Shown here piece after piece: positions 42,619-51,733 of a stretch of 64,000 bases of DNA. Below the pieces are notes generated by a model. The model did no database searches. It was not told the DNA's origin and saw only the letters and a program-made list of their open reading frames with translations. The stretch lies in assembly GCA_965221905.1 (NCBI GenBank), contig OZ244922.1:3264001-3328000 (forward strand), written 5' to 3'. The DNA comes from Chloroflexota bacterium (lineage in GTDB: Bacteria; Chloroflexota; UBA11872; VXOZ01). The position numbers and the translations under genes are program-made. Within the stretch, counting starts at the first letter, position 1, and each line of letters starts with the position of its first letter.

Positions 42619-43329
42619 ATGGCAACCGAGAAACTCCCGGAAGGACTGGTTCCCAGCGGCAGTTCACTCACGTTCACGGAAGATACCATCCCCGAAGCCC
42701 TCCAAAAGGAACACACGTTGGCGGCAGGACGTTGGGGCGTCCTCCACGTGTTTGCAGGCAGCGTGCGGTTTGTGAACCTCGAGACCAGTGAAGAGAGCGA
42801 CGTTTCTGCGCCCGATCACGTGATCATTCACCCGGAGGCACCGCACAGAGTACATCTCACCGGGCCGGTACAATGCCGCGTGGATTTCTTTCGAGAGTTG
42901 GACCACGACTCCACCATGCGCACGCCGGGCAGCTTTGCCGGCGATGAGGTGCGGCAAAGTTTCGATCGCTGCGAGGCCGCCGGCGACTTCGCTGAGACCT
43001 TCTACACTGCCTTTATGAATGCCTCTCCCGCGATTGCCCCGTTCTTTGCCAAAACGGAGTTCGCTCGCCAACGCACGCTGCTCCGGGATTCGGTATACCT
43101 GATGGTGACCCAGGACGTCTCGGACCCGGAGATGCGAGCATTGCTGAAAAAACTTGGCGAACTCCACAGCCGCGCCGGCCGCAACATCGCGCCAATGCTC
43201 TACGAACTGTGGCTGGACAGCATCTGCAAGACGGTAAAAGCCCTCGATCCCGAATGGACCCAATCACTCGAAGACCACTGGCGGGTACGCCTGCGCGCCG
43301 GGATGCAGATCATCACGGCGGCGTATTAG
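42619..43329 (+). CDS. DUF1971 (TehB-N-like cupin) fused to a single-domain globin
   Basis: FTEDTIPEAL.K.HTLA.G.WG.L.V..G...PHRV; then FAETFY..F...SP.IAPFF..T.F.RQ..LL, LGELHSR, YELWLDS. Confidence 0.75.
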   Translation: MATEKLPEGLVPSGSSLTFTEDTIPEALQKEHTLAAGRWGVLHVFAGSVRFVNLETSEESDVSAPDHVIIHPEAPHRVHLTGPVQCRVDFFRELDHDSTMRTPGSFAGDEVRQSFDRCEAAGDFAETFYTAFMNASPAIAPFFAKTEFARQRTLLRDSVYLMVTQDVSDPEMRALLKKLGELHSRAGRNIAPMLYELWLDSICKTVKALDPEWTQSLEDHWRVRLRAGMQIITAAY

Positions 43330-43428
43330 AGGGTCTGCGGAGACTCCTTTCACCGCGGAAAACGTGCTTCCCTAAACCGATGGACAAAGAAACTGCACAA
43401 GATGAATGTCCACTCGAACGTTGGAAAA

Positions 43429-44190
43429 TCACAGGTGTTTTTCAAAGCTTAGGTACTTCGACAGAACATCGTATTCAAGGATTATGCTCGTATCAGTCGC
43501 CTGATTTAGTCTTCTGGCTCTTCCTGGGTGTAACTTGCCGCTACGCTCCCTAAAGGCAACATTTACCACTCTCTTGCCATAATCCTTGATTAGCTCAACT
43601 GCGGGAACATAATCCTGATCACCCGAAACAACAACCGCCACGTCGTACACGTCTTTCAAGAATGCCATGTCACAAGCCAGTTTTACGTCGACTGACTTTT
43701 CTCCCCTAAACTTCCTCTCAAACAAATCGTATCTGACTATTCCCGATCGCCGGAATTCGACTGCGTCATGGTGTGTGGCGATATCTCCTTGTATGCGTAT
43801 CCACCCCTCAAATCGCCGCTGTATGCCTTCTTGGCGCTCCTCGAGGTCGTCCACAATCGCTAACATTCGCTCCATCCGAGATTCCACATCGACGAATTTG
43901 TCTAGCTGCGCCTGAAAGCAGGGATGCTTTGAAAGAATCGAGTTGAGGTTTTTGGGCTGTCTAGCTAGCTTTCTTAGACTATATGGATAAAACTCTATGT
44001 CTTGAACCACATACCAATAGGTGCGAATCCGCAATCCCAGATGGCTAGATTCGGAGGCGATGTAGTCAAATAACTTAGTCCAGTCGGCTCCCTTCGGCAA
44101 GTAGTCTGTTTTTTGGAACTCATCCTTGAAAAGACCACCAATGGAATGCCGAAAGTTTTCACCATCAACGAAGATGCACACTCTGTTCAT
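43429..44190 (-). CDS. NYN domain (LabA/DUF88, PIN-like) ribonuclease
   Basis: IFVDGEN, EKSVDVKLACD, VSGDQDYVP..E..KDYGK.V; lower GC than its flanks. Confidence 0.9.
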   Translation of the reverse strand: MNRVCIFVDGENFRHSIGGLFKDEFQKTDYLPKGADWTKLFDYIASESSHLGLRIRTYWYVVQDIEFYPYSLRKLARQPKNLNSILSKHPCFQAQLDKFVDVESRMERMLAIVDDLEERQEGIQRRFEGWIRIQGDIATHHDAVEFRRSGIVRYDLFERKFRGEKSVDVKLACDMAFLKDVYDVAVVVSGDQDYVPAVELIKDYGKRVVNVAFRERSGKLHPGRARRLNQATDTSIILEYDVLSKYLSFEKHL

Positions 44191-44202
44191 GTTTCCCGCC
44201 TT

Positions 44203-44274
44203 AAACAAAAGCGGCGAACACGCAGTTCGCCGCATCGCCAATAAGCGTCTAGGACGCACCTAGACGAAGCCTCA
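44203..44274 (-). ncRNA. Candidate twin-hairpin leader or antitoxin RNA upstream of the NYN gene
   Basis: CGTCTAGG-TGCGT-CCTAGACG and GCGGCGAAC-TGCGT-GTTCGCCGC-TTTTGTTT. Confidence 0.55.
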
Positions 44275-44279
44275 CTTCG

Positions 44280-44308
44280 ATTCTATCTCAACCGGCAACT
44301 TGAGTCAA
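44280..44308 (-). promoter_or_regulatory. Sigma70-type promoter for the leader and NYN gene
   Basis: TTGACT-N17-TAGAAT. Confidence 0.7.
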
Positions 44309-44432
44309 TCGTCTCACGTTCGAGTTCATCGTCTGGTCTGCCAATAGGCAAGTACCTAGCCTGCATGTCACCGCTTGTCTATGCTAGTATACGGTATCCG
44401 TATTCGCGCAGCGTAAGAGGCAATGGTATCCC

Positions 44433-45506
44433 ATGCAGGTGCAAATTACCGCGCCGATTCATGGCGCGATCCTCAATCGGCACGACGGGCGGCAGGACGA
44501 CGCGGGCTTGCACATCACCGTGCAGGGCGTGGTGAGCGAAGCCGATACCGTGACCGTGAACGGCGTGACGGCCACGATAATCGGCGCCACGTTCACGGCG
44601 GACTACACCCTGGACGTCCACGAGACGGTGCTTACGGCCGTGGCGGAACGCGGCGGTGAGACGCTAACCCATGCCGTGACGGTGCTCTGGGACCAGCGTT
44701 CGTTCCCGCGCTACCGCTTCTCGCTGGACGACGACGTGTTGTTTCTGCGCGATATCGCCTTGGAACGGCCGCGCTCGCTCTTCGATAACTTCTACCTGGG
44801 GTTCATGCGCGACCTCCGCGACCGCTACGGCACCAAGACCCACATCAACATCTACTACGCTTACGAGGACTTCGACCTGCGGCAGATGCCGGATACGTAT
44901 AAGTCCGAGTGGCGCGACAACGCCGACTGGCTGCAACTTTCGTTCCACGCCCGCACCGACCATCCGCGCGATCCGTATAAGGAAGCGTCGGCAGAGAAAC
45001 TCATAACCGACTACCGGCAGGTGCGCGACGAGACGCTGCGCTTTGCGGGCGAGCAGAGTTGGTCGCACTTCACTACGATTCACTGGGGCGAGGGCACCCG
45101 CCTGGGCTGCCGCGCGTTGCGCCAGGAGGGTATCTGGGGCCTGGCGGGCTACTTCATTCCGGCCCCGGACCTGCGCGTAAACTACTACCTGGACCACGCC
45201 ACCACCGCTTACCTGCATACCCACGACTACTGGATGGACTACAGCGAGGATATTCTCTTCGTTACCCACGATCAGGTCATTAACTCGCACAAGACGCCGG
45301 AGGAAGTGACGGCCCATCTGGACTCCGTGGGGCAAGACCCCCACCGCAGTGAGATCATGGAGCTAATGGTCCACGAACAGTACTTCCGCAAAGAGCTGCG
45401 GCATTACCAGCCCAACGTGCCTGCAAAGACCGAGGCGGCCATCCGCTGGGCGACCGAACACGGCTACAAGTCGGTCTTGTACAACGAGGGCTTCCTGGGC
45501 GCGTAG
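44433..45506 (+). CDS. Hypothetical: Ig-like N-terminal domain plus deacetylase/NodB-like barrel
   Basis: Beta-rich N-terminus (ITAP..G, TVTVNG); SLDDD, SFHA, TIHWG, MVHEQYF. Confidence 0.6.
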   Translation: MQVQITAPIHGAILNRHDGRQDDAGLHITVQGVVSEADTVTVNGVTATIIGATFTADYTLDVHETVLTAVAERGGETLTHAVTVLWDQRSFPRYRFSLDDDVLFLRDIALERPRSLFDNFYLGFMRDLRDRYGTKTHINIYYAYEDFDLRQMPDTYKSEWRDNADWLQLSFHARTDHPRDPYKEASAEKLITDYRQVRDETLRFAGEQSWSHFTTIHWGEGTRLGCRALRQEGIWGLAGYFIPAPDLRVNYYLDHATTAYLHTHDYWMDYSEDILFVTHDQVINSHKTPEEVTAHLDSVGQDPHRSEIMELMVHEQYFRKELRHYQPNVPAKTEAAIRWATEHGYKSVLYNEGFLGA

Positions 45507-51348: not shown

Positions 51349-51387
51349 CGTCATTGGAAAGGGGCTTGCTCTTCTTCGCATGGAGCA

Positions 51388-51427
51388 AGCGGAAAGCTGC
51401 GGGTCTCGAGGCCCGCAGCTTTCCGCT
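51388..51427 (+). terminator. Strong hairpin after infB
   Basis: AGCGGAAAGCTGCGGG...CCCGCAGCTTTCCGCT. Confidence 0.6.
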
Positions 51428-51733
51428 ACTTTGTGGGTGACACTTGCAACAAGAAATCTAAGAAATAGACTGCAGTATTAGTAGGGGTGGGCCTAGAGTC
51501 GGCACATATTCAGAAGAAGGTGAATTCGACAGGACATGCCACCTGCTACTTAGCCCATCACTCTAACATTGTGTACCCCCTACGGAGACCGCTCATCTTG
51601 ATTTTAGCTAGTGGAGAAAGATCTGCCTGGCCTCTACTTCACACGCAAATCATCGAGTTTCAGGCATAGTGGTAGGGCTTTAGGCATGTGGGAAGCAAGG
51701 TAGACTCCTTGGATCCTTCGAAAAGGAGAGCTC

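Follow-up and report, generated by a model that had tools for sequence, protein, structure and literature searches.

What does a stand-alone nuclease gene gain from a promoter, two hairpins and a terminator set directly in front of it? The question is raised by a locus in a 64,000-nucleotide (nt) stretch of DNA from a Chloroflexota bacterium (contig OZ244922.1, positions 3,264,001 to 3,328,000), analysed at its full length and referred to hereafter as the window. Its minus strand carries a gene for an NYN/LabA-like nuclease; to our knowledge, bacterial stand-alone nucleases of this kind have almost no assigned function. An original prediction, made from the sequence of the window, had taken the gene and its twin-hairpin leader for a candidate RNA-antitoxin (type III-like) system, an interpretation that our analysis supports in part. 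The leader proved to be a genuine structured RNA that is conserved and linked to this NYN family in particular. As to its role, we judge that the chances are evenly balanced for a type III-like or AbiF/RCd22-like nuclease–RNA module, in which the RNA would serve both as a throttle in cis and as an antitoxin-like partner in trans.

Layout of the locus and its leader

The promoter, the hairpin of 8 base pairs (bp), the 9-bp hairpin, the U tract and the NYN start, all named in the original prediction, were each found in place on the minus strand, as was the identical UGCGU pentaloop on two unrelated stems. The features of the locus are as follows.

44308-44280, minus strand: sigma-70-type promoter, TTGACT-17 nt-TAGAAT (consensus scan, 10 of 12 positions matched)
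44308-44303, minus strand: -35 box TTGACT, with a 17-nt spacer to the -10 box
44285-44280, minus strand: -10 box TAGAAT
44199-44270, minus strand: full twin-hairpin RNA motif (covariance model R1, 61 bits, E 2.9e-15)
44266-44246, minus strand: hairpin 1, 8-bp stem with pentaloop UGCGU (loop at 44254-44258)
44234-44245, minus strand: single-stranded linker joining the two hairpins, 12 nt
44233-44211, minus strand: hairpin 2, 9-bp G+C-rich stem (7 G-C pairs) with loop UGCGU at 44220-44224
44210-44203, minus strand: U tract TTTTGTTT, directly 3' of hairpin 2
44203-44233, minus strand: hairpin 2 with U tract, in the form of an intrinsic terminator (listed in the terminator scan)
43429-44190, minus strand: NYN/LabA-like nuclease gene, 253 amino acids (open reading frame, Pfam)
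43333-44372, no strand assigned: cargo slot holding the entire promoter-RNA-NYN module, flanked by two genus-conserved genes

To judge from the sequence, transcription of the leader probably starts near 44273 on the minus strand. The ATG of the NYN gene is at 44190, 12 nt past the end of the U tract. A longer open reading frame (ORF) of 276 amino acids, started by GTG, was rejected as the gene: it reads through hairpin 2, and the homologues begin at the ATG. As predicted, the gene is lower in G+C content than its flanks (45-50% against 58-66%).

Folding of 96-nt and 71-nt leader RNAs gave precisely the two hairpins (z = -3.0 and -3.9, respectively), and none of 200 shuffled sequences was as stable in either case. 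The promoter scan returned 3 promoter-like sites in 3 kb where 1.3 were expected, so the promoter counts for little when taken by itself. A search of the 3.52-Mb source genome with R1 found a sole true copy of the motif, the one described here. The next-best match in that genome (24 bits) was rejected as an ordinary terminator lacking the loops, and a match in the window at 51359-51439 (15 bits, E 0.11) was regarded as noise.

Conservation and covariation of the leader RNA

Relatives of the protein numbered 765 at E up to 1e-3 in a 90%-clustered collection, and 68 relative clusters were found at E up to 1e-30 in a 50%-clustered library. We sampled 160 loci, 80 from species-representative genomes and 80 from metagenomes. 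The hosts of the genome loci include Chloroflexota/Dehalococcoidia, Planctomycetota, Patescibacteria, Nitrospirota, Desulfobacterota and Pseudomonadota, together with Acidobacteriota, Binatia, WOR-3, Omnitrophota and Actinomycetota, and their homologues share 44-61% amino-acid identity. The 200 nt upstream of the homologues showed a near-universal common architecture.

The leader of the window was aligned by MAFFT with 59 others, chosen with our own hairpin finder. RNAalifold recovered two helices of 7 and 9 bp from this 60-leader alignment, with compensatory changes at 14 of the 16 pairs. The proportion of paired cells was 97.4%, as against 84.0% in shuffled alignments, a percentage inflated by the use of a hairpin finder to select the leaders. 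The covariation score was 0.588 against 0.300 for shuffled alignments (none of 500 was as high) and fell to 0.11-0.18 when the pairing partners were slid. By our sum over the per-pair counts, G-U pairs account for 121 of 958 cells in the same alignment. Such pairs would be A-C mismatches on the other strand, so the structure is one of RNA transcribed in the sense of the NYN gene and not one of DNA.

The covariance model R1 was built from the alignment of genome leaders. Among the 80 genome loci it matched the sense strand just upstream of the NYN gene in 68 and the opposite strand in 3, leaving 9 with no match; the corresponding numbers for the 80 metagenome loci were 73, 1 and 6. In total, the sense-strand motif lies just upstream of the gene in 141 of the 160 loci, on the opposite strand in 4 and on neither in 15. 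The metagenome matches are independent of the building of R1, yet their alignment is fitted to it; in this set 99.3% of cells were paired, 15 of 16 pairs showed compensatory changes and the covariation score was 0.512 against 0.266 for shuffled alignments. Over the two alignments, the pairs with such changes comprise all 7 modelled for hairpin 1 and 7 to 8 of the 9 in hairpin 2. A leader that is conserved with covariation in other genomes is more than a product of chance. The covariance check proposed in the original prediction therefore came out in its favour, with stems that covary, loops that stay near UGCGU and a motif that recurs upstream of the homologues.

Statistics for loops, linkers and U tracts were compiled from 125 distinct motifs. 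The loop reads UGCGU in 77 of them for hairpin 1, in 80 for hairpin 2 and in 59 for both. Among five-base loops the second position is G in 112 of 113 (hairpin 1) and 107 of 109 (hairpin 2), and the loops hold across phyla while the stem sequences change. Paired changes of the two loops (UGCGG/UGCGG, UGUGU/UGUGU) were few and followed clades, and we draw no claim from them. The sequence CGCTT, predicted to follow both 3' arms, is present in the window but is not conserved in the homologues. The linker measures 10-16 nt in most homologues and contains AUAC in 27 of the 125. Within the first 8 nt after hairpin 2 there are at least five U in 83 motifs and at least four in 98. In 90 of 120 distinct loci, as compared with 5 of 120 control stretches, the 70 nt preceding hairpin 1 contain a sigma-70-like site, whose -10 hexamer is separated from the hairpin by a median of 21 nt. 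As a rule, members of the family have a promoter, a structured RNA, a terminator and then the nuclease gene.

A search of window positions 43000-44800 against Rfam at E up to 10 returned nothing relevant (two chance matches, with E above 8), and the leaders of 14 loci gave no match at the gathering threshold. The twin-hairpin RNA is a new, widespread family that is absent from Rfam 15, as the original prediction had asked to be checked. It adds a well-supported structured RNA family, bound to one compact NYN family in many phyla. A scan with R1 of 150 more genomes from the phylum turned up no additional copy; since 32 candidates per genome were scored, this sample shows the motif to be rare rather than absent.

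Exactly two such hairpins were counted in 84 of the 141 loci with a sense-strand motif. Four loci were flagged for extra hairpins, and by this screen only L049 has a real third; in that locus hairpin 1 occurs in two copies. At L070 an additional stem resembling hairpin 1 lies upstream of the promoter. In the genus relative G011 (L039:2368-2491, the same locus as L010), hairpin 1 is followed by three tandem stem-loops resembling hairpin 2, with a U tract only after the last of them.

Among the 15 loci without an R1 match, inspection by eye revealed a variant leader in 14. Its first hairpin bears an AUUG-type loop and is immediately followed by a conserved AAUAC; a plain terminator completes the leader. 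Thirteen proteins with variant leaders were included in the protein tree and form one clade, made up of bacteria of the candidate phyla radiation (CPR) and two contigs labelled Gammaproteobacteria. The remaining locus, L167, has different hairpins followed by a terminator.

Two further observations concern the CPR-type loci. By eye, a CUUUGU after the AAUAC could pair with an ACAAAG at the base of the terminator stem; this option is seen about 100 nt upstream of the NYN start at L151, L173, L194, L196, L200, L093 and other CPR-type loci. The NYN gene of L173 is closely followed downstream by a group I intron (66.5 bits) and two tRNA genes (L173:2451-3100).

The NYN protein

Pfam matched a single family in the protein, NYN (PF01936), at 57 bits against a cut-off of 24.2 and over residues 144-236 only. 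The catalytic motifs DGEN, EKSVD and SGDQD are all intact, in agreement with the original reading of the sequence. Residues D9, G10, E11, D168, D174, D191 and D193 are invariant among 119 aligned homologues; because the acidic residues are invariant throughout, the protein is expected to be an active nuclease. The predicted structure is confident (predicted local distance difference test, 95; predicted template modelling score, 0.90) and shows an NYN/PIN-like core into which helices are inserted at about residues 72-140, with one long helix at 102-140. Among solved structures, 2qip, a LabA-like protein, came nearest (E 1e-5); T5 flap endonuclease and the NYN domain of MARF1 were also listed. 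The suggestion that each protomer might bind one loop found no support, and the homodimer prediction, with a score of 0.02, is uninformative either way on that point.

The HEC-09 and NYN models of PADLOC gave no full-length match, but stretches of about 50 residues of the core at E 4e-8 and 5e-5. Across the PADLOC, NCBIfam and PHROGs libraries only short matches over the catalytic core were found.

Loci in which the RNA is separated from the gene

Four loci, L084, L085 and L089 (Planctomycetota) and L186, carry the complete motif, U tract included, on the strand opposite to the gene, at a distance of 80-200 nt from the start of NYN. Inspection by eye showed a sigma-70-like promoter on the strand of each motif itself (TTGACA-17-TATTAT at L085, TTGCAT-16-TATAAT at L089), and no second NYN remnant was found behind any of them. 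In the comparison of L084, L085 and L089 the RNAs are 84-87% identical, as against 65-68% for the NYN genes, and the hairpin 2 stems of L084 and L085 differ, by eye, in a compensatory manner (G-C to A-U). An RNA that is inverted and has its own promoter cannot be a leader there and must be a separate small RNA. The inverted loci therefore appear, from their sequences, to favour a role as RNA partner over that of a mere attenuator.

Decay of the locus in relatives bears on the same point. R1 detected the motif in 8 of 61 related genomes. The full-length NYN gene is intact in two of them, G000 and G011, the only 2 of the 17 genomes of the genus to carry it in that state. In G026 the gene breaks off at residue 199, and in G020 it is split. 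G005 and G002 retain about 50 codons, interrupted by stops, G010 about 37 and G034 about 14. At all six decayed loci the promoter and the RNA remain intact, the RNA scoring 48-66 bits. Among the 61 relatives no intact NYN gene of this family was found without the RNA. Survival of the RNA beyond the gene is the order expected if a toxin decays before its antidote, an argument to which we give modest weight. In the last two of these genomes, L224 (G010:C3) and L226 (G034:C14) are orphans, with a promoter and a twin-hairpin RNA beside the short NYN remnants.

Genomic context and mobility

The description of the gene as standalone held for the family as a whole. Among the ORFs flanking the 160 loci (n = 1299), the largest family reaches no more than 10 loci and consists of an ORF that runs antisense across the leader and the NYN start; all other flanking families occur in five loci or fewer each, in close relatives. 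There is no conserved partner protein gene. A quick IQ-TREE tree of 141 proteins showed the phyla intermixed. These observations describe a module that is complete in itself and moves horizontally, with one promoter, one small RNA and one NYN gene in about 1 kb; with the proposed role of the RNA included, we would put the whole picture at no better than evens.

Within the genus, the comparison of the slot covered window positions 43333-44372 and loci L214-L222. The flanking genes, one for a DUF1971-globin protein and one of 357 amino acids, are both kept in 16 of 16 other genomes of the genus, and the cargo between them differs. In G003 the slot holds a cyclic oligonucleotide-based antiphage signalling system (CBASS) operon, with a cyclase (5e-100), an E1-E2 protein (2e-165) and a TIR-SAVED effector (2e-133). 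G013 and G005 have a 902-amino-acid N6-methylase protein at this site, G015 has a DNA methylase and G007 a ResIII-type helicase. A gene for a 149-amino-acid retropepsin-like protein is found in the slot of G004, G012, G016 and G015. The CBASS, methylase and helicase cargo at the same site indicates that in this genus the module sits in a variable slot of the defence type.

One locus of the family has itself been interrupted. In Candidatus Magnetobacterium casense (L112:2207-2500) the NYN gene runs for about 17 codons before an insert of some 270 bp breaks it. The insert is bounded by terminal inverted repeats of 23 bases and looks like a small non-autonomous mobile element.

A proposed mode of action and its alternatives

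The favoured reading can be set out as a series of steps. The near-consensus sigma-70 promoter would drive a transcript of about 70-90 nt, with two hairpins that both display UGCGU. Hairpin 2 and the U tract would terminate most transcripts, releasing a free small RNA, and NYN mRNA would arise from read-through only; the efficiency of termination is assumed here. No antiterminator pairing was seen in the canonical leader in a search made by eye only. As hairpin 2 is very stable and has no competing pairing by eye, it looks like a constitutive, leaky terminator, and a strong promoter followed by a strong terminator ahead of the gene would yield much small RNA and little mRNA. The free RNA might then be the cognate partner of the nuclease, which would bind the loops and be kept inactive. 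In cis the RNA would thus throttle transcription, and in trans it would be an antitoxin-like inhibitor, as experiments have shown for RCd22/AbiF and ToxI/ToxN. By the same analogy, a stop in transcription, for instance on phage infection, could lead to decay of the RNA and set the nuclease free.

Several points weigh against this reading. Binding, inhibition, toxicity and phage defence are properties that we only infer for the NYN–RNA pair. The RNA is not a tandem repeat array, as judged from the hairpin counts and from Tandem Repeats Finder, which reported 0 repeats in the window. Outside the genus the neighbours are mostly housekeeping genes. A survey of 142 of 150 nearest-neighbour ORFs represented 72 of the 80 genome loci; by our tally of Pfam names, a defence, toxin–antitoxin or mobile-element neighbour occurs at about 13 of these, the names being those of methylases, the toxins HicA and RES, Uma2, transposases, resolvases and terminases. 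Searches for relatives came up empty in viral contigs and, at 1e-10, in plasmid and phage records. A single inversion event may account for all four inverted loci, the tree fitting one or two. The persistence of the RNA at decayed loci counts for little, because the gene offers mutation a target roughly ten times as large as the RNA does. Finally, HEC-09, an NYN defence candidate of different architecture, was not protective in its test according to the part of the report available (bioRxiv 10.1101/2024.01.29.577857). The NYN protein described here matches the HEC-09 model over about 50 residues only, and the two are unrelated.

The leader could be autoregulatory and nothing more, with NYN binding or cutting the UGCGU loops of its own nascent mRNA and so boosting termination or decay, and with no inhibitor role for the RNA. 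The position of the motif in cis, in the 5' leader of the great majority of loci (141/160), agrees with this; two identical loops fit a single recognising protein, and NYN is the sole factor that moves with the cassette between phyla. Feedback in cis is, however, impossible at the four loci that keep a well-conserved RNA and its promoter on the other strand. The persistence of RNA and promoter where the NYN gene is gone also argues against it, as does a stable hairpin 2 that looks constitutive, with no alternative antiterminator pairing by eye. We regard autoregulation as the sole role of the leader as unlikely.

Alternatively, the RNA could be a cofactor or a substrate: a scaffold, activator or specificity element of a ribonucleoprotein (RNP), or a precursor that NYN processes into an active small RNA. 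An RNA is linked to the gene in 160 of 160 loci, if canonical, variant, inverted and hairpin-plus-terminator forms are counted together. In some pairs it is more conserved than the protein, an arrangement in trans exists, and the 5' tail and linker vary in sequence, all of which a cofactor or substrate would accommodate. However, no segment looks like a guide with matches elsewhere, although no search was made for such matches; retention of the RNA after loss of the nuclease is unexpected for a cofactor useless alone; and a strong terminator ahead of the gene suits an excess of RNA, as in antitoxin designs. A role as cofactor or substrate seems to us improbable. We give still less credence to the version in which the RNA is an obligate subunit of an RNP nuclease, with the UGCGU loops docking NYN and the variable 5' tail and linker helping to select targets, which, if true, would make this a minimal RNA-dependent PIN-like nuclease found across bacterial phyla, including the CPR.

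A plain attenuator or stabiliser, in which hairpin 1 is a 5' stabilising stem, hairpin 2 a leaky terminator and the loops serve folding or a universal host factor, would account for hairpin 2 having every feature of an intrinsic terminator and for the CPR-type variant, which retains a hairpin plus terminator while its first loop differs and its second is not conserved; it is nevertheless very unlikely, given the same pentaloop on two unrelated stems in at least ten phyla, which neither termination nor stability requires, the absence of the motif from the rest of the source genome, and the inverted loci.

With a length of about 1 kb and a sigma-70-type promoter, the cassette should be directly testable in Escherichia coli.

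Comparison with known systems

The protein shares its core fold and acidic active-site residues with LabA-like NYN proteins (PF01936; 2qip, VPA0982) and with the NYN domain of MARF1, and differs from both in the helical insertion of about 70 residues (72-140) found in the present family. No cognate RNA for LabA-like NYN proteins or for MARF1 was described in the literature searched. Neither that literature, which covered papers free of paywalls, nor Rfam contained a description of an NYN gene paired with a leader RNA, in line with the original prediction, to which no such system was known.

Autoregulatory leaders of RNase genes are known from rne and rnc of E. coli, and Regnase-1 acts on stem-loops, one of them in its own mRNA. 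These cases resemble the present one in that a nuclease gene has conserved stem-loops in its own transcript. They differ in acting in cis only and in having no terminated small RNA, whereas the RNA linked to NYN can be a separate, divergent gene.

The type III toxin–antitoxin families ToxIN, CptIN and TenpIN are built of a promoter, a structured antitoxin RNA, a terminator and an endoribonuclease gene, with the RNA in excess over the toxin mRNA. Their toxins have the ToxN/AbiQ fold, their RNAs are tandem arrays of 34-37-nt repeats, and they occur as sporadic mobile modules. In ToxIN-type systems the toxin processes the RNA and a cyclic RNA-protein assembly is formed. The NYN module shares with these families a Rho-independent terminator between RNA and nuclease gene and a sporadic, mobile distribution. 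The type III-like layout originally proposed thus stood as far as the order of promoter, RNA, terminator and nuclease is concerned and failed on the tandem repeat array and the ToxN-fold protein, both of which are missing. Membership of the three families (PMC8860590, PMC5772629 and PMC12283969) was rejected on the NYN fold (Pfam, 2qip) and the lack of a tandem repeat array.

AvcID illustrates a small-RNA antitoxin with a toxin other than ToxN. According to the portion of PMC10511110 available, its RNA is abundant and labile and decays once transcription stops; the toxin AvcD is a deoxycytidylate deaminase, no terminator is predicted between avcI and avcD, and the RNA is about 171-300 nt long. 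As far as that account goes, the likeness is that type III-like logic is tied neither to one toxin fold nor to repeat arrays, and the differences are the deaminase toxin, the missing avcI-avcD terminator and the longer RNA.

The closest experimentally studied layout is that of RCd22/AbiF (Abi_2, HEPN) from the Clostridioides difficile phage phi027. As described in the accessible part of PMC12373285, it comprises a SigA promoter, an RNA some 100 nt long in which the abiF motif occurs twice, a terminator, and then a ribosome-binding site and the nuclease gene. The toxin mRNA arises from read-through and deletion of the RNA raises abiF 17-fold, and RCd22 neutralises AbiF in cis as well as in trans through direct binding (PMC12373285, same part). 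On that description the likeness extends to a housekeeping-sigma promoter, an RNA with two copies of a motif, a terminator, a nuclease expressed by read-through and a single protein gene, features that for the NYN module are read from sequence. There are also differences. The AbiF protein is of the HEPN/Abi_2 type where an NYN/PIN-like fold is found here, and the NYN leader RNA matches neither the abiF motif RF03085 nor any other Rfam family. In the NYN leader the second motif copy is itself the terminator hairpin, unlike the arrangement given in the part of the RCd22 account at hand. Membership of the AbiF family was rejected, the layout agreeing but RF03085 giving no match and Pfam returning NYN only. 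If the RNA neutralises the nuclease, the RNA-antitoxin (type III-like) class would gain in this module its first member with an NYN fold, and AbiF/RCd22 would be joined by a second case of a small RNA that has a conserved hairpin element in two copies and serves as attenuator and antitoxin alike.

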